Of a stretch of DNA of 64,000 nt, positions 2,264 through 27,046 are shown one piece after another. A model generated the notes under the pieces. The model searched no databases. It worked only from the letters and a program-made list of their open reading frames with translations, and was not told the origin of the DNA. Numbering within the stretch: position 1 is the first letter of the stretch; every line of letters begins with the position of its first letter. The stretch is from positions 1 through 64,000 of the IMG/VR virus record IMGVR_UViG_3300026097_000010; one strand, written 5' to 3'. Position numbers and translations under genes: made by a program. The stretch comes from a virus.

Positions 2264-3317
2264 ATGTTCCTGCATTAGGTAGTTCGCCAGATTTCACAAA
2301 AGATCGTACACCGGCATACGACACGCCGGACCAGTCTATGCTGGCTATCCTGCCTACACTATCCACTTCAAGAACTGTTATTGTTAAATCGTTTGCGGGC
2401 GTTTCGCCACCTAAAACATCTCCGGATATTGTGATTATATCTCCTACATTATAGTTGGTTCCTGCCGCATCAATACCTACTTCATAAGAACCTAAAACTG
2501 TTTGACGAATTACAAATTCAGCAATTGCGGTTGCTATATTAGGAACGTGCTTGATTCTAAACCAGTTATACTTTCCTTCGATGTTTTTGTATTCTAGATC
2601 GTCCTCTGGAACAAAACTTAACAGATCATTCCAACTGTTAGGACTGGCACCTTGATCTTCTATGCTACCTTGTATAGTAACCGTGCCACTGTAGTTCGTT
2701 GAATACAGTTGAAATGTGTGTAGGGAACTTGCGGTAGTTACATTGGGTCTAGCATCTATTATGCTCGATACATAAAATGCAGGATCTTCATCACCTGTAG
2801 CGGCTGGGTTTGTATAATCAAATTTATTTACAACTAAAGACTGATTGACATCGCCATTCGTGCCTCCTAGTAGTTCTATAATTGCCTTTGTGCCGTATTG
2901 GCTATCAATGTACATTGGAGTTCTACGTGTAACACGATACTCGTCTGAGTCAATTGTTTCTCTTAGTTCTTGCACTATGCTGTATTCGTAGAAGCCCGAT
3001 TCAATACTAAACAGCTCTGTTTCTGTTATTTCTACAAAAAATCTTCCGATCGATGCATCGACTATCACGCAATCTTTTTGTAACACTAATTTTTCAGTGT
3101 CTCTGCTAATAAGGTTAAATACCATTGATGAATTGGAAACATCGATTGCTTTTTCATCACCGTTGCGAACTTGGATATCGATGCGATTATTGACATCTTG
3201 ATAAAATTTTAGATTGCGATTATACACTTCTCTGTACCTCTCTGCGGTCCAGGGAGTTGATGCACTTGTATAGGCATCGATGCGATTTGAATATAAATAA
3301 AGATAATTAATTTGCAT
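2241..3317 (-). CDS. Hypothetical, probably virion structural (beta-rich) protein
   Basis: 358-aa ORF; GTNYNVGDIITISG..LGG..PANDLTITV resembles an element in the giant fibre protein; TAAATA upstream at about 3342-3347. Confidence 0.5.
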   Translation of the reverse strand: MQINYLYLYSNRIDAYTSASTPWTAERYREVYNRNLKFYQDVNNRIDIQVRNGDEKAIDVSNSSMVFNLISRDTEKLVLQKDCVIVDASIGRFFVEITETELFSIESGFYEYSIVQELRETIDSDEYRVTRRTPMYIDSQYGTKAIIELLGGTNGDVNQSLVVNKFDYTNPAATGDEDPAFYVSSIIDARPNVTTASSLHTFQLYSTNYSGTVTIQGSIEDQGASPNSWNDLLSFVPEDDLEYKNIEGKYNWFRIKHVPNIATAIAEFVIRQTVLGSYEVGIDAAGTNYNVGDIITISGDVLGGETPANDLTITVLEVDSVGRIASIDWSGVSYAGVRSFVKSGELPNAGTFDKILYR

Positions 3318-3350
3318 AAAACTATTGGACCTTAATATACATATTTATCT

Positions 3351-3722
3351 ATGAGAATAACAGAAAATCTACAACAAAATTTTCCATTTATCAGCGTTCT
3401 TAATCATGTCGACAAAGAATATGTCGGAATAATTATTAACCAAGATTCTATCGTAACCAGCATGTATGATTACGAAGCAATTAAAGAAGATGAAGCCAAA
3501 AAAAGATTCTTAGATTTAGGAGAAGCTTGGTGGTGGGAATCTAATAGACAAATACCTATTAATATTTTTTTAGCAAGCGAAATTCAAGAATTTAGATATG
3601 TAATTAAAAACTTTACTACTAAAGATGTTAAAATTACATTAGGACCAACCACAAGTTTAAATGATATTATAGTTAAAAGAGTAAAAAGAAAATCAATAAC
3701 TCTGGTTAGAAAAATTAACTAA
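3351..3722 (+). CDS. Hypothetical protein (WWWESNR motif)
   Basis: 123-aa ORF filling the gap between two - strand genes. Confidence 0.75.
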   Translation: MRITENLQQNFPFISVLNHVDKEYVGIIINQDSIVTSMYDYEAIKEDEAKKRFLDLGEAWWWESNRQIPINIFLASEIQEFRYVIKNFTTKDVKITLGPTTSLNDIIVKRVKRKSITLVRKIN

Positions 3723-4278
3723 TCTGTTCACAAATCAAATTCATTTGTACTATAATTGCCATCGCATATGCTAGAGAATGCGACTTCTTAAAATAATATC
3801 CACTTTCGGGCTTAATCCAAACTTCCTTTAGTATAGTCGTCCACATTTCGTCTGCTAGGTATCTTTTTGCTGGACGAATTACTGCCAGTGTGGCTGCTAG
3901 TTGTTCTACGGTGGTTGGTTTCAGTTTCTTCAATAGATCTGAGTGCCCTGAGAGGTGAAATAGTTGATCTACAAAATCTCGATGTTCTAGAAGTTCCCAT
4001 AACGGCTCCGCGTTCATTAGTTCTACAAGGTGAGTTTCGTTTCGAACACCTTTATAAATACCTACATTTAAAAAATCCAGTTTAAAATATTTATAGTCGT
4101 CTGCTTCATCATAAGGTATTGCACATAGATTAGATACAGCATCAACAGGAACTTCATGTAGATAAACGCCTGTGTTATGTTTTACAAGTTTATTTTCTTC
4201 GCGCCGACTAGCTCTAGTATGTTTAAATAACTCTAATGCTTTTTCTCTATCGACAAAATCTATATCTATGTCAGGCAT
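3715..4278 (-). CDS. Minimal DNA polymerase III alpha (family C) catalytic-core protein
   Basis: MPDIDIDF, KHNTGVY, KLDFL, IRPA and YFKKSHSLAYA correspond in order to DnaE motifs PDxDxDF, HxGG, KxDxL, RPG and FNKSHSAAY. Confidence 0.85.
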   Translation of the reverse strand: MPDIDIDFVDREKALELFKHTRASRREENKLVKHNTGVYLHEVPVDAVSNLCAIPYDEADDYKYFKLDFLNVGIYKGVRNETHLVELMNAEPLWELLEHRDFVDQLFHLSGHSDLLKKLKPTTVEQLAATLAVIRPAKRYLADEMWTTILKEVWIKPESGYYFKKSHSLAYAMAIIVQMNLICEQIS

Positions 4279-4811
4279 TTATTATATCCTAAATATTCAA
4301 AATCTTTTCTAAGTTTATTGTATACTATTTCTTGAAGCTCGTCATTATAATATTTTCTATAATTGTCAGGCGTACTACGATTTAGATGAGGAAATTTAGA
4401 TGCAATTTTAAAATATTCAGGAACATCGGTAGATAATGATTCAAACCGAAATGTCTTATCTATTAAGTTTTTATCTTCAAGATCTAGCATATAATCTGTT
4501 TGTAGTTCCCAAAGATGTTGGCCACGACCGGCTAAGTTTTCTGATTTTATAAAACACTCAAACGATAAATTGCCGTACCTTCTTTTATCGCGTTTCGTCC
4601 AATTATAAAAACTAACAGTCCTGCTATACGGATTTCTAATTATACAAAACTTCCAACTAGGCTCATTCGAATATCTAACAGCAGGGATATGTTGATTATA
4701 AACATTAAATATGTCTGTTGAATTGCCACATGCGAAATCTAAACCATTATTTCTTAAAAATTTATAAGTGCTGGTCCCTCCATTTTTTCGTATGTGAATA
4801 AATCGAATCAC
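4266..4811 (-). CDS. Sulfotransferase (Sulfotransfer_2-like)
   Basis: FIHIRKNGGTS (5'-PSB loop) and RNPYSRTVSFY (3'-PB). Confidence 0.85.
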   Translation of the reverse strand: MIRFIHIRKNGGTSTYKFLRNNGLDFACGNSTDIFNVYNQHIPAVRYSNEPSWKFCIIRNPYSRTVSFYNWTKRDKRRYGNLSFECFIKSENLAGRGQHLWELQTDYMLDLEDKNLIDKTFRFESLSTDVPEYFKIASKFPHLNRSTPDNYRKYYNDELQEIVYNKLRKDFEYLGYNKCLT

Positions 4812-5227
4812 AGTTTGCCTTCAGACCTTAACTGTGCTCTAATTTTTGTAGCACTTATTTGATGCATATCCTCACCCAAGTCATGTTGCGTAAATGTATA
4901 ACCAACACCTCTACCATAACTGATATCCACAATGTTAGGCACTTCTATAATTACATATTCTTCACCATATGTAAATCCTTCTTTTAATAGTCCCACACGA
5001 ATATTTTCTTTCACAGTGTGTACATCAAACGGATTATCGTCCTGTGATGCTGTGCGTCCACCGCTGGCATCTTCACCTACGATACCACCAACGTCGCGTA
5101 TCATTATGCATACCTGTCCTGTTTCCATCAATGCTTTTTTAAACAGTGCAGTGTGTCCGTCGTGCCACGGTTGCCATCTGCCTAACATCTGTGTGGTAGG
5201 CTTTTTCCAATCAAACTTCTTTTTCAT
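4808..5227 (-). CDS. HIGH-type nucleotidyltransferase (cytidylyltransferase-like; candidate minimal ATP sulfurylase)
   Basis: GRWQPWHDGH and ISATKIR. Start moved to MKKKFDW (5227), which has GGAG upstream. Confidence 0.75.
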   Translation of the reverse strand: MKKKFDWKKPTTQMLGRWQPWHDGHTALFKKALMETGQVCIMIRDVGGIVGEDASGGRTASQDDNPFDVHTVKENIRVGLLKEGFTYGEEYVIIEVPNIVDISYGRGVGYTFTQHDLGEDMHQISATKIRAQLRSEGKL

Positions 5228-5438
5228 TTTTAACTCCATACTTGATATGTTTATACCATAGACGCTCGTGTCCATAGTACAGTACAAATTTGATTATCAA
5301 ATCTGCGACGAATACTCCTCCTACAGCTTTCGGTGGTAACCCAAAAGCAAATGCAATTAGTGCTGTAGTAATACTTGCTATCACCCGCCATGTAATAGCT
5401 TTTGCAACATGTCGTTTCCTTTCTACTGTTTCTGTCAT
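5211..5438 (-). CDS. DUF2061-like small membrane protein
   Basis: RHVAKAITWR..T..hydrophobic..KFVLYYGHERLW pattern. Confidence 0.8.
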   Translation of the reverse strand: MTETVERKRHVAKAITWRVIASITTALIAFAFGLPPKAVGGVFVADLIIKFVLYYGHERLWYKHIKYGVKNEKEV

Positions 5439-5851
5439 ACAATAGCTTCTTGTATTTGATTTCCTAAACTTGTTATTTCATTATCGCTTAGATGCTTGAT
5501 TACACGAAAATCAACATTTTTTGGTTGCTCAAACATTTTGTTTGTGTCTTCAAATCTGCCTTCTGTGATAGTATCAACCCAGATTTTAATATCCGCGTCA
5601 AACATCTCTCTGGCTTGTTCGGTTGGACATACAAAATCGCACATTACGATCCTTCCTTCACTCTTTTCAAAGTCTGCAATATGTCGCATACGTTTAGCTT
5701 GTCGAAGTCGACCTTCCGAAGTAAAATCCCAATCGTTTGCCATTTCTCTTACAGCATCTGCATTATACCAAGCATAGCCTAGTTGTTTTTGTAAACGTTC
5801 TGCTAAGTGTGTTTTTCCGGATCCTGGTAATCCCATTATTAATATTTTCAA
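5435..5851 (-). CDS. cysC: Adenylylsulfate (APS) kinase-like P-loop kinase
   Basis: GLPGSGKT, NADAVR, DFTSEGRLRQ, DFVCP, FEQP. Confidence 0.78.
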   Translation of the reverse strand: MKILIMGLPGSGKTHLAERLQKQLGYAWYNADAVREMANDWDFTSEGRLRQAKRMRHIADFEKSEGRIVMCDFVCPTEQAREMFDADIKIWVDTITEGRFEDTNKMFEQPKNVDFRVIKHLSDNEITSLGNQIQEAIV

Positions 5852-6531
5852 AGTATTTTAGCCTCTTCAATAACTTCTTTTACTAGAACATGATCAGCTG
5901 GATGATCTTTAAAACGTTTTATCCAATATTTTGGATCGATAACAAGACCGATAATTTCAAGTTGTTCGTCGTTCATATTCTGAAGTAGTTCCTTTCCAGC
6001 TCGTGTATTTAAAAGAAGCCACGGAGATATGTGTCCTTCTTTGATATGATGTGTTGCTCGATTTAGATTAACATACTTGAAGTAGTGTTCCCAGGCAGAA
6101 TTGTTTTCGTCAGCCCAATCCATCATAGTTTGAATAGTTCGTTGTATAGCACCGTCGGCAGGTTCGATCTTAATTAGTTCTTGAACATATTGATCATACA
6201 ATGCATCACGACACCAGTGATCTAACTTTACTCCGCTTTTAATAACCCATTCTATAAATCTTTCTGGATATATAGGAGAAGTATTTACCAGGAAGCTACC
6301 GAATTTAATAAATGCATTGTAGTACGGACTGCTCACGAAATCGTTAAATGTTTTAGGTTTTGTGCTAGGTTGTGCTACCTGATAAAATTTTTGATATGCT
6401 TGCAACGCCATTTGTGTATGTTTTTCATTTCTAGCAAGGTGTCTGCGTTTCTTTTCACACACATGTACTATAAGAGTTTTTTCACGGGCAAATTTTTTAC
6501 CGCAATATTCACATTTAAAGTTTAATTCCAT
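5848..6531 (-). CDS. Phage protein with N-terminal C2HC zinc finger
   Basis: FKCEYCGKKF..LIVHVC; probable start at MELNFK (6531). Confidence 0.7.
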   Translation of the reverse strand: MELNFKCEYCGKKFAREKTLIVHVCEKKRRHLARNEKHTQMALQAYQKFYQVAQPSTKPKTFNDFVSSPYYNAFIKFGSFLVNTSPIYPERFIEWVIKSGVKLDHWCRDALYDQYVQELIKIEPADGAIQRTIQTMMDWADENNSAWEHYFKYVNLNRATHHIKEGHISPWLLLNTRAGKELLQNMNDEQLEIIGLVIDPKYWIKRFKDHPADHVLVKEVIEEAKIL

Positions 6532-6979
6532 CGATTGCTTTTTTGTCCCATCCAAGGCTTTTACAGTATTCTTTAATTTCTTTGTCTGAAGTAATGGCGG
6601 CGATTGTTTCAATGTCTGCTCTTTTCTTTTCTGGAAATAGTTCTGCTAAAAATTCGATCTTTTTATTTTTTTCTTTCTTTACTTTAAGCCAAGGATGAAA
6701 ACGAATCTGCTTGCTTTCGTGAGCACAACTACATGCTAACTGCCAGCATAGCTTAGGATGCTTACTTAAAAATAAAAATAAATTTTTGTTAAATCGTTCA
6801 TTGGCTAGTAGTGTAAAGTGTTCTTGCATTTCTCTACTTCCTTCAACATTGCTAATGTATCGATTAAGAGTAAAGAAAACAATGCTCTTGCGTTGATCGT
6901 CTGTAAGTTCATCCCATAGATATTTTGCATCCATATCTACAGCCGCTAGTATTTCTTTAAGTGTGAGTTTATCTGCCAT
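6515..6979 (-). CDS. Clamp-loader small subunit (gp62-like)
   Basis: Size, FFTLNRYIS..LANE..HP..W..FHPWLK pattern, replication context. Confidence 0.6.
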   Translation of the reverse strand: MADKLTLKEILAAVDMDAKYLWDELTDDQRKSIVFFTLNRYISNVEGSREMQEHFTLLANERFNKNLFLFLSKHPKLCWQLACSCAHESKQIRFHPWLKVKKEKNKKIEFLAELFPEKKRADIETIAAITSDKEIKEYCKSLGWDKKAIDGIKL

Positions 6980-14031: not shown

Positions 14032-14643
14032 TTAAAAGTCGTATCTAAAAGCATCGACGTCATCTTTCCATTTATCTGCTACTATATCAATTAGTTCTTG
14101 ACTTGTATAATAATCTTTATACGATGTCCTATTTCTGGTTTTATTAGAGTGTCCTAACGATTCGAAACAATTTAACCGTGTCTGAACTTCCTTAAAATCA
14201 TCTGATAAATTTTCTAATCTGATCCAATAGTCGCAGTTTTTGGCCCACAAAAGCTGAGATCCTCTACTAGTTCGTTTAAGCCAGCCATCGAACCCTTCTG
14301 CTTCTAATCTATCTATTTGTTGTTGTTGTGTCTCAACGTTATATTTTTCTTTATGACTATTTGCTAACGAAGGATTGTTTTTGACCATGTTAATTCTAAC
14401 CTTAGCAGCATCTATCTTAAAAGTATACCAACTAACAGCATAGTCCCAAGGATTTCTAATTACACAGAATTTCCAACCTAGATTTCCTAGAAGATTATAT
14501 GCTGTGTTAATATCGCAATGTTGTTTTCTTTTTGTAGTTTTTGTGGGGAAGTTTTGACGCATCCAGTCGCTTACACTGTTCCCTGCATTTTTCGGAATAT
14601 GGATAAAGGTACAGTGATAAGGATCGTTAATCATAACGGCCAT
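14032..14643 (-). CDS. Sulfotransferase (Sulfotransfer_2-like)
   Basis: FIHIPKNAGNS, RNPWDYAVSWY. Confidence 0.85.
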   Translation of the reverse strand: MAVMINDPYHCTFIHIPKNAGNSVSDWMRQNFPTKTTKRKQHCDINTAYNLLGNLGWKFCVIRNPWDYAVSWYTFKIDAAKVRINMVKNNPSLANSHKEKYNVETQQQQIDRLEAEGFDGWLKRTSRGSQLLWAKNCDYWIRLENLSDDFKEVQTRLNCFESLGHSNKTRNRTSYKDYYTSQELIDIVADKWKDDVDAFRYDF

Positions 14644-25901: not shown

Positions 25902-26477
25902 ATGGTTACTCCTGTAAGATTTATACACATTGAAAAATGTGGAGGCACATCGGTTGCTAAATTCCTAAATGACAATAATTTTGATTTTTTAATGGGTAAA
26001 AATTTTAAAAAGAACAAAAAGCATTCTCATGCCGCAATGTTTGAACATGAGGATAGTTTTAAATTTACTGTTGTAAGAAATCCGTATACCAGATTAATTA
26101 GTTTTTATAATTACAATAAAAACAAGATCGGAAACTGCACTTTTGAAGAATTTGTTAAAAATAAATTAACAGAAAATCTCATAACTCTTCAGGTCATGAA
26201 AATTCATAAACCAATCGAAAATGCTGTTTTTGGGCCAATGTCGATAAGAGAATTAGAAAAACAATTTCATTGGGATAAAATGTTGGTTGATAAAATTTTC
26301 AAACTAGAGAATTTACAAGAACTAAAACAATACTTAAAAATAGATGCAGAATTTCCGATCGAAAACAAATCTATAAAAGCTAATCCGGAAAGTTATTACA
26401 ATTACGAACTTAAAGAAATTGTTGCAGATCACTTTAAAAAAGATTTCGAAATATTAGGATACAATTCAGAATTATGA
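25902..26477 (+). CDS. Sulfotransferase (Sulfotransfer_2-like)
   Basis: FIHIEKCGGTS, RNPYTRLISFY. Confidence 0.85.
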   Translation: MVTPVRFIHIEKCGGTSVAKFLNDNNFDFLMGKNFKKNKKHSHAAMFEHEDSFKFTVVRNPYTRLISFYNYNKNKIGNCTFEEFVKNKLTENLITLQVMKIHKPIENAVFGPMSIRELEKQFHWDKMLVDKIFKLENLQELKQYLKIDAEFPIENKSIKANPESYYNYELKEIVADHFKKDFEILGYNSEL

Positions 26478-27046
26478 AAAGATTTATACACATCCCTAAA
26501 ACAGGTGGAACCTCTATTAAGGAATGGCTTAGAAAGTTCACTGATGAAAAAATATTAGTTGATCTCGGATCGAATATTACAGGCTATCACAATCATCGTA
26601 TGCACTGTCGATGGTATAAGTTTAAAGGCGAGCGAACTGAAAAATTTTCTACTATTAGAAATCCGTTTCATAGGACTGTAAGCGGTTATAATTATTTAAA
26701 ATTTAAATTGAATAATCCTGCTCGAAAGATAGTATCTGAATCTTTTGAAGATTTTGTAATTTCTAGTTTGTTAGATTCTGCCGACGAAGTATTTTTACCT
26801 CAAATTTATTGGCTTAAACCTAGATCTAAAAGATTTCTTAAAGTTGAACATTTTTTTAAAATCGAAACAGAAATAGAAGAACTTCAATATTACCTCGGCT
26901 ATCATGCACCGATTCCTAAAATTAACATTAGCACACAGAAAAAATATGCAGAGTTTTACAAATCTAAAGAAGTACAAGATATTGTAAGAGAAAAATATTA
27001 TCTAGATTTTAAATTATTAGGATACGATATAGATACTATAGAGTAG
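26474..27046 (+). CDS. Sulfotransferase (Sulfotransfer_2-like)
   Basis: FIHIPKTGGTS, RNPFHRTVSGY. Confidence 0.85.
   Translation: MKRFIHIPKTGGTSIKEWLRKFTDEKILVDLGSNITGYHNHRMHCRWYKFKGERTEKFSTIRNPFHRTVSGYNYLKFKLNNPARKIVSESFEDFVISSLLDSADEVFLPQIYWLKPRSKRFLKVEHFFKIETEIEELQYYLGYHAPIPKINISTQKKYAEFYKSKEVQDIVREKYYLDFKLLGYDIDTIE

Follow-up and report, generated by a model that had tools for sequence, protein, structure and literature searches.

Known sulfate-activating systems and the phage locus

Two enzymes supply sulfotransferases with 3'-phosphoadenylylsulfate (PAPS) in described systems, namely ATP sulfurylase, exemplified by the Sat family (PF01747; Thermus thermophilus 1v47, yeast Met3), and adenylylsulfate (APS) kinase, CysC. 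Both activities are combined in bifunctional PAPS synthases (PAPSS1/2; Aquifex Sat-APSK 2gks), and NodPQ beside NodH follows the same logic of a dedicated PAPS supply encoded next to a sulfotransferase. Marine phages also carry host-derived sulfur genes (cysC, cysH) as auxiliary metabolic genes. We analyzed a 64,000-nucleotide stretch (hereafter, the window), positions 1 to 64,000 of the IMG/VR virus record IMGVR_UViG_3300026097_000010, which is a single contig of 152,482 bp from a marine giant phage and about 42% complete according to CheckV. Contigs related to this record contained T4-type neck, tail, and terminase genes. The object of the analysis was a cassette of four overlapping genes:

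5435-5851, minus strand: APS-kinase-like P-loop kinase, 138 aa, without the lid segment
5211-5438, minus strand: DUF2061 small hydrophobic protein, 75 aa
4808-5227, minus strand: nucleotidyltransferase (NTase) of the HIGH superfamily, candidate minimal sulfate adenylyltransferase, 139 aa
4266-4811, minus strand: Sulfotransfer_2-like sulfotransferase of 181 aa, whose gene is translationally coupled to that of the NTase

The kinase and the NTase (together, the module) probably supply PAPS for the sulfation of phage glycans, an activity predicted from homology, fold, gene fusions, gene neighborhoods, and co-occurrence; the reactions catalyzed, the way the flux runs, and the carbohydrate that is sulfated are all inferred from these data. 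The two proteins would act as a two-enzyme PAPS synthase. The NTase, which would represent a minimal HIGH-superfamily enzyme descended from NMNAT-like ancestors (NMNAT, nicotinamide mononucleotide adenylyltransferase), would adenylylate sulfate (ATP + sulfate <-> APS + pyrophosphate [PPi]), and the lid-less APS kinase homologue would phosphorylate the 3'-OH of APS to yield PAPS. The coupled sulfotransferase and three paralogues encoded in a neighboring glycan-synthesis island could then use PAPS to sulfate a carbohydrate.

The four overlapping genes described in the initial annotation are confirmed by the sequence, and all four open reading frames (ORFs) lie on the minus strand with coupled junctions. 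The TTG start of the kinase shares TTGA with the stop of the upstream gene (5851/5848), the ATG of the DUF2061 gene shares ATGA with the kinase stop (5438/5435), and the GTG of the sulfotransferase shares GTGA with the NTase stop (4811/4808). For the NTase, translation from the ATG at 5227, which has GGAG in front of it and leaves an overlap of 17 nt with the end of the DUF2061 gene (5211), yields the expected 139 aa. The ATG of the next gene (4278) overlaps the sulfotransferase end (4266) by 13 nt. Because of these overlapping junctions, the four genes represent a section of a longer, tightly coupled operon.

The nucleotidyltransferase is a minimal HIGH-superfamily protein

The NTase had no Pfam match at E <= 0.01. 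Its family matches were weak NCBIfam ones only, to NMNAT and to phosphopantetheine adenylyltransferase (PPAT), both via the motif GRWQPWHDGH, and its scores of 16-21 bits against NCBIfam NMNAT cut-offs of 127-449 place it outside the archaeal/NadM NMNATs. The protein also contains ISATKIR and YGRGVGY (YGRDVGY in the family consensus). GRWQPWHDGH and YGRGVGY resemble, without being equal to, the Sat motifs QxRNPxHxxH and GRDHAG, and the spacing of the HxGH region differs from that in QxRNPxHxxH.

The family is large, with more than 8,000 near-length cluster representatives forming 1,006 clusters at 50% identity. GRxQPxHxGH, VRD, NPF, VPN, YGR(D)VGY, and ISATxIR are invariant or nearly invariant in it. 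A family profile matched NadM and archaeal NMNATs with E values of 1e-10 to 1e-6, and Sat only as sub-threshold fragments. The SAR11 orthologue scored 21.3 bits with PF01467, for which the cut-off is 21.

The AF2 model (pLDDT 87.7) is a single domain with a HIGH-type fold. This fold, together with an HxGH motif that follows strand 1 and an ISxTxxR motif where a helix begins, assigns the NTase to the HIGH nucleotidyltransferase superfamily (PF01467 clan). Foldseek retrieved NMNAT/NadM first and PPAT next (top E value 6e-4). In an exhaustive structural alignment, the highest scores were those of NadM (Z 10.8), PPAT (Z 9.9), and NMNAT (Z 9.7); ATP sulfurylase 1v47 was at rank 5 (Z 8.5, 119 residues aligned), cytidylyltransferases scored Z 7-8, and other Sat structures about Z 6. 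A structural comparison of Sat versus NadR/TagD had been proposed as a check in the initial annotation; the fold gives no substrate for the NTase, since the Z scores of NMNAT, PPAT, and Sat differ by only about 2. The Sat-like motifs noted in that annotation (HxGH and ISATKIR) are present, but the argument drawn from them is unspecific, since HxGH and IS(A/G)TxxR are common to the whole HIGH superfamily, and the nearest kin of the protein are NMNAT/NadM and PPAT. The NTase falls outside the Sat family.

With Sat, the NTase shares the HIGH fold, IS(G/A)TxxR, and fusion or pairing with APS kinase, as in PAPS synthases, and it resembles Sat in its HxxH-type motif and in a loop with GR(D) that follows strand four. 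Unlike the NTase, Sat belongs to PF01747, reads QxRNPxHxxH in place of GRxQPxHxGH, and consists of a catalytic domain of about 200 aa and a PUA-like N-terminal domain (350-570 aa in total) versus 125-139 aa; in sequence, the NTase is nearer to NMNAT. Archaeal and NadM-type NMNATs (1f9a, 1ej2, 2qjt), the best matches in both sequence and fold, share GRxQPxHxGH, NPF, and ISxTxxR. Unlike them, the NTase lacks the C-terminal subdomain, as the protein stops about 10 residues past ISATxIR, and VRD and YGR(D)VGY are invariant motifs specific to the NTase family. The genomic links of the NTase are to APS kinase, AprMBA, and sulfotransferases and not to NAD genes.

Compared with the SAR11 orthologue, 13 additional residues rich in Gly and Asp are inserted in the phage NTase and its close relatives (GIVGEDASGGRTASQ region, residues 47-61); this insertion is the only low-confidence loop of the model. 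In one cluster representative (P0244), the central segment is internally duplicated, and one viral locus (L168) has the gene order NTase-kinase-NTase.

The kinase is a lid-less APS kinase homologue paired with or fused to the nucleotidyltransferase

The assignment of the first gene to the APS kinases is supported at the level of homology. The protein scored 39.1 bits with APS_kinase PF01583 (cut-off 21.1), covering profile positions 5-94 of 152, and has the P-loop GLPGSGKT; a weak Pfam match to AAA_28 was also found. Among solved structures, the one closest to it in sequence is 2yvu, an APS kinase from Aeropyrum (E value 1.6e-9). The family profile built from 24 members matched about 25 different APS kinases (E values 6e-14 to 3e-8), and the sole non-APS kinase ranking among them was one adenylate kinase 9 match, in the P-loop region (E value 8.8e-11). 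The AF2 model (pLDDT 97.2) retrieved APS kinases as the top Foldseek matches with TMq of 0.76-0.85, while gluconate and shikimate kinases in the same list scored 0.6-0.7. By profile and fold, the kinase is a divergent, lid-less APS kinase homologue.

Residues were matched using HMMER alignments to 2yvu, Mycobacterium tuberculosis CysC, and Penicillium chrysogenum APS kinase. The NADxVR motif of the phage kinase aligns with DGDxxR of APS kinases, DWDFTSEGRLRQ (DWDFTxEGRxRQ) with LGFSxxDRxEN, FVCP with FISP, and F-x7-F-E-Q-P (F-x7-F-E-x-P) with FTGIDxxYExP. As a result, R35, F43, R48, and F-x7-F-E-x-P are located opposite the APS-binding positions of the structure 1M7G, namely the Arg of DGDxxR, the Phe and Arg of GFSxxDR, and the second Phe before YExP. 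R35 and R48 are invariant in the kinase family, and F43 and F107 are nearly so. Compared with CysC, the protein is shorter (138 aa versus about 175-200), lacks the lid (KGLYKKAR region) between these motifs, and has another residue in place of the first Asp of DGD.

More than 5,700 proteins of 250-275 aa are kinase-NTase fusions with the kinase first. The same order, with the kinase N-terminal and the adenylyltransferase C-terminal, is found in animal PAPSS, and the kinase half of the fusions is homologous to CysC; the adenylyltransferase partner belongs to a different family. In the phage protein family phrog_10255 ("kinase", 230 positions), positions 2-107 correspond to the kinase and 117-228 to the NTase. 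In P0341, a membrane domain precedes the fused kinase-NTase. Family members already carry the database labels "adenylylsulfate kinase" or "kinase". In the literature, we found no described small ATP sulfurylase and no interpretation of the kinase/NTase pair. The pair resembles the phage cysC and cysH genes in being a host-derived sulfur gene pair in marine phages, but differs in that its NTase half has not been interpreted as a sulfurylase in the literature found and that it is coupled here to a sulfotransferase and DUF2061.

The module in SAR11 and SAR86 genomes and its link to APS reductase genes in SAR11

Bacteria with the kinase/NTase pair include Pelagibacteraceae, where it is mostly encoded by two overlapping genes, as well as SAR86 and Alphaproteobacteria from soil. 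The phage pair is 50-66% identical to the SAR11 and SAR86 copies and, judging from these sequences, looks like a host-derived auxiliary gene pair, presumably a phage copy of a near-core SAR11/SAR86 pair.

Co-occurrence of the module with aprA was analyzed in 151 Pelagibacterales genomes, using TIGR02061 for aprA and a profile for the module. The module profile matched in 132 genomes, with about 123 strong NTase matches, and aprA was found in 124. The genomes were distributed as follows:

module found, aprA found: 119 genomes
module found, aprA not found: 4 genomes
module not found, aprA found: 5 genomes
neither found: 23 genomes

The odds ratio of this association is 137 (Fisher p = 2e-18, uncorrected for phylogeny). 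One unpublished genome in the sample (G121) contains both the module and aprA, and the result is the same without it. The module was not found in about 19% of the sampled SAR11 genomes, and its absence tracks that of aprA.

By comparison of coordinates, at least 22 of the 151 genomes have the NTase gene no more than 1.5 kb from the apr cluster. Of six such regions analyzed, three (L174, L177, and L178) encode on one strand a major facilitator superfamily (MFS) transporter, a CADD-family protein, the NTase (126 aa, without the kinase), an AprM-like membrane protein, AprB, AprA, and a 116-aa ORF; in L177, the apr gene string with the MFS transporter and the CADD-family (TIGR04305) protein occupies positions 2596-6550. 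The gene order in L067 is MFS-kinase-NTase-CADD-aprM-aprB-aprA, and in L175, L176, and L179 the kinase-NTase pair lies immediately beside the apr cluster in convergent orientation. In L174, L177, and L178, AprB scored 188.6 bits versus an NCBIfam equivalog cut-off of 135.65, and AprA 994.6 versus 641.75. The apr-linked SAR11 NTase is 52% identical to the phage NTase (E value 1e-44) and retains every motif. Its place beside aprM-aprB-aprA is that of sat in the sat-aprMBA clusters of purple sulfur bacteria (Allochromatium-type). Neither the phage record nor any of 87 related viral loci yielded a homologue of aprA, aprB, or aprM. The 116-aa ORF located directly 3' of aprA (L177:6200-6550) is kept in all six SAR11 regions and had no Pfam or NCBIfam match.

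Neither PF01747 Sat nor a convincing CysD was found in three SAR11 genomes and one SAR86 genome. Canonical CoaD scored above its cut-off in all five genomes checked (four SAR11 and SAR86 G003), and canonical NadD in all four SAR11 genomes; NadD was not found in SAR86 G003. Since NadD and CoaD are present and Sat and CysD were not found, the NMNAT and PPAT jobs are filled in the SAR11 genomes checked, and the sulfurylase job is vacant. A separate canonical CysC is present in some SAR11 genomes. Published analyses reported aprBA, cysC, and cysQ in SAR11 with sat and cysDN absent (PMC5069961) and the absence of ATP sulfurylase from most SAR11 (PMC10356861). The small NTase may be this ATP sulfurylase said to be missing. 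In SAR11 and SAR86, it would probably also run in reverse beside AprBA, converting APS and PPi into ATP and sulfate.

Sulfotransferases in the phage record and beside bacterial modules

The cassette sulfotransferase scored 18 bits with Sulfotransfer_2 (PF03567), under the cut-off of 22, and matched phrog_3347 with an E value of 4e-10. Its identification, already made in the initial annotation, is upheld by 39% identity (E value 6e-41) to a paralogue encoded at 25902-26477 and by the motifs HIRKNGGTS and RNPYSRTVS, corresponding to the 5'-phosphosulfate- and 3'-phosphate-binding elements. In total, the window contains four Sulfotransfer_2 paralogues, of which three are above the Pfam cut-off and two of these are in tandem (25902-27046):

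14032-14643, minus strand: sulfotransferase paralogue, likely a further PAPS consumer, PF03567 25.9 bits versus cut-off 22
25902-26477, plus strand: sulfotransferase paralogue, PF03567 39.8 bits
26474-27046, plus strand: sulfotransferase paralogue, PF03567 33.8 bits

These three are spread over a glycan-biosynthesis region of about 25 kb that also encodes a DegT aminotransferase, methyltransferase- and glycosyltransferase-like proteins, and an amidotransferase. A six-frame search of the whole 152-kb record with PF01747 gave nothing at E <= 1, and no CysD or CysH was found in the record.

In several Alphaproteobacteria, a sulfotransferase gene is next to the module. A Bradyrhizobium metagenome-assembled genome (L027) encodes a TPR+Sulfotransfer_3 protein (E value 2.7e-32) adjoining the fused gene, with a homologue in L044. 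A Sulfotransfer_1-type neighbor (22.4 bits versus cut-off 22) was found in a SAR11 variable region (L075), with a homologue in L014. Weak Sulfotransfer_3 matches adjoin the fused gene in L021 and L038, and ASST-family proteins adjoin it in Inquilinus (L022) and in L029.

Arrangement of the module in viral loci

A DNA search with the cassette against 50,697 phage records gave no match. A protein search of phage records recovered only 12 distant fused homologues, from Xylella, Xanthomonas, Stenotrophomonas, and Clavibacter phages, sited among replication genes. The 87 related viral loci showed the following arrangements:

kinase-NTase: 50 loci
kinase-DUF2061-NTase, as in the window: 21 loci
fused kinase/NTase and DUF2061: 6 loci
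other: 10 loci

Co-occurrence with sulfotransferases across phages had been proposed as a check in the initial annotation. A single locus (L127) has a sulfotransferase within 10 kb, directly after the NTase; both complete genomes carry a sulfotransferase-family match, one of them weak. The four-gene unit is rare among related phages. In view of these counts, the conserved unit is the kinase and the NTase, with or without DUF2061, and the sulfotransferase is a variable addition.

Functional interpretation

The proposal that a small ATP sulfurylase and an APS kinase feed a sulfotransferase, made in the initial annotation, is likely to be correct in view of the kinase-NTase fusions, the aprMBA clusters, the co-occurrence with aprA, the sulfotransferase neighbors, and the four sulfotransferases of the window. 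With less assurance, we lean toward a broader interpretation, in which the NTases of 125-139 aa are a third, minimal type of ATP sulfurylase and the enzyme missing from SAR11. There, they would convert APS derived from organosulfonate sulfite to sulfate and ATP, and together with the kinase partner they would form PAPS; the pair would be an auxiliary metabolic gene in thousands of marine phages, some of which would use it for their own sulfotransferases.

Several findings weigh against these interpretations. The NTase has no PF01747 match, its nearest kin by sequence (E value 1e-10) and fold are NMNAT/NadM and PPAT, its nearest characterized relatives are NMNATs, and Sat took just rank 5 among its structural matches. 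The kinase scored 24-34 bits with the NCBIfam CysC models (TIGR00455 and PRK models), far below their cut-offs of 127-244; it lacks the lid, with nothing aligned between profile position 94 and the FTGID-like segment, and has Asn in place of the first Asp of DGD (NAD). The statistic for the co-occurrence of the module and aprA ignores shared ancestry. Most phage and most SAR11 copies are not beside sulfur genes; in SAR11, most are distant from aprBA and adjoin genes for an enoyl-CoA hydratase and a CoA-binding protein, and in cultured Xylella and Stenotrophomonas phages the fused gene lies amid replication genes. No sulfotransferase was present within 10 kb in 86 of the 87 related viral loci, and PF03567 matched in just 6 of the 35 longer records, a count with no module-free phage baseline. 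Finally, as the record is about 42% complete, a canonical sulfurylase could be encoded in its unseen part.

The alternative that best withstands the evidence, although we regard it as unlikely, retains the kinase as a true APS kinase and assigns to the NTase another APS-related activity, such as that of an ADP sulfurylase (APS:phosphate adenylyltransferase), one-way pyrophosphorolysis, or a regulatory or scaffold role. In that case, the phage would do no more than convert APS supplied by host AprBA or CysDN into PAPS. The linkage to aprMBA and APS kinase indeed ties the NTase to APS and not to one reaction, and the separate canonical CysC of some SAR11 genomes fits this scheme as well. However, GRxQPxHxGH and ISATxIR, the catalytic motifs, show little or no variation, nucleotidyl transfer with release or uptake of PPi is the known chemistry of HIGH-superfamily nucleotidyltransferases, and the sat-like place beside aprM-aprB-aprA best suits an ATP sulfurylase.

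An NMN/NaMN (nicotinamide or nicotinic acid mononucleotide) adenylyltransferase that forms with the kinase a NadR-like pair for NAD salvage (riboside kinase and NMNAT), by which phages would sustain or rebuild NAD, is quite improbable. NadM and archaeal NMNATs are the nearest relatives of the NTase in sequence and fold and share GRxQPxHxGH and NPF with it, some family members are named NMNAT by JGI, and the AAA_28 match of the kinase, albeit weak, points in the same direction. Yet across the substrate-binding region the kinase aligns with APS kinases and not with NadR kinases, the NTase is devoid of the NMNAT C-terminal subdomain, and the SAR11 genomes checked have canonical NadD above the cut-off. 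NAD salvage also does not fit the absence of the module from about one-fifth of the sampled SAR11 genomes, tracking the absence of aprA, and leaves the linkage to aprMBA and sulfotransferases unexplained.

Still less credible is the synthesis of coenzyme A (CoA) or a CoA-like 3'-phospho-ADP compound, with the NTase acting as PPAT and the kinase as an analogue of dephospho-CoA kinase. PPAT is the second-best structural match, and both APS kinase and dephospho-CoA kinase act on an adenosine 3'-OH. The enoyl-CoA hydratase and CoA-binding protein genes downstream in the SAR11 core context, as well as the GNAT and Mom-like neighbors at one phage locus, could be accommodated by this scheme. But canonical CoaD is present in all five genomes checked, the kinase fits the APS_kinase profile while CoaE was not among its Pfam and NCBIfam matches, and here, too, the aprMBA and sulfotransferase linkage has no explanation.

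Least probable of all is a TagD-like cytidylyltransferase that serves the glycan island next to it by activating the phosphate of a polyol or sugar, a substrate phosphorylated by the kinase: the NTase is similar in size to TagD (about 130 aa), cytidylyltransferases reach Z 7-8, and the cassette lies inside a glycan-synthesis region (aminotransferase, glycosyltransferase-like protein, amidotransferase), but most family members are found outside glycan islands, in SAR11 core regions, beside aprMBA, or among phage replication genes, and the kinase retains the adenine-sandwich and phosphosulfate-binding positions of APS kinase.

If the NTase does adenylylate sulfate, as the favored interpretation predicts, no other ATP sulfurylase would come close to it in smallness, and a non-orthologous replacement would have taken place inside a single enzyme superfamily. 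It would fill a recognized gap in SAR11, the disposal of sulfite from the breakdown of taurine and dimethylsulfoniopropionate, possibly with a gain of ATP, and the candidate makes the question of the missing sat of SAR11 directly testable. A very abundant marine family would be re-annotated, whose cluster representatives, over 8,000 of them stand-alone and over 5,700 fused, are now named "kinase", "NMNAT", or hypothetical. Giant marine phages would bring their own PAPS supply for glycan sulfation, which bears on the modification of host surfaces or virions.

DUF2061 and other neighboring genes

The DUF2061 assignment made in the initial annotation is confirmed by a PF09834 score of 51.7 bits (cut-off 23.1, E value 1.2e-13); the invariant residues of this protein include W..R and Y.HER.W. 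Its gene lies between or beside the kinase and NTase genes in 31 of the 87 related viral loci, and a search of representatives showed DUF2061 fused to the NTase in one cluster (P0292). A search for longer DUF2061 fusions returned only tandem DUF2061 proteins. The literature on DUF2061 consists of listings in Fur/iron regulons of free-living Proteobacteria, with no function given. Here, DUF2061 is presumably an accessory protein, and its only ties to the NTase are gene adjacency and the fusion.

The gene following the cassette (3715-4278, minus strand), whose start overlaps the sulfotransferase end, encodes a 187-aa protein matching phrog_11778, "DNA polymerase" (E value 1.8e-65), and weakly DnaE-type PHROGs. 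In SAR86 (L043:7055-7954 and L040), a YeiH family member (PF03601/TIGR00698, "putative sulfate export transporter") is encoded upstream of the module and a DoxX protein after it. In a cyanophage-like contig (L001:6819-8502), the fused kinase-NTase gene is followed by genes for a P-loop+GNAT protein and a Mom-like protein (PF25680), which hints at DNA modification genes nearby. Recurrent immediate neighbors of the kinase and NTase genes in both phages and SAR11 are 2-oxoglutarate-Fe(II)-type oxygenases (2OG-FeII_Oxy_3-like, HalD-like, and PhyH), found, e.g., at L002:5166-6011, L076:8780-9631, L014:8779-9501, and positions 3072-3623 of L013 (DLP_6). A HalD-like gene is located directly 3' of the NTase gene in 18 SAR11 loci.

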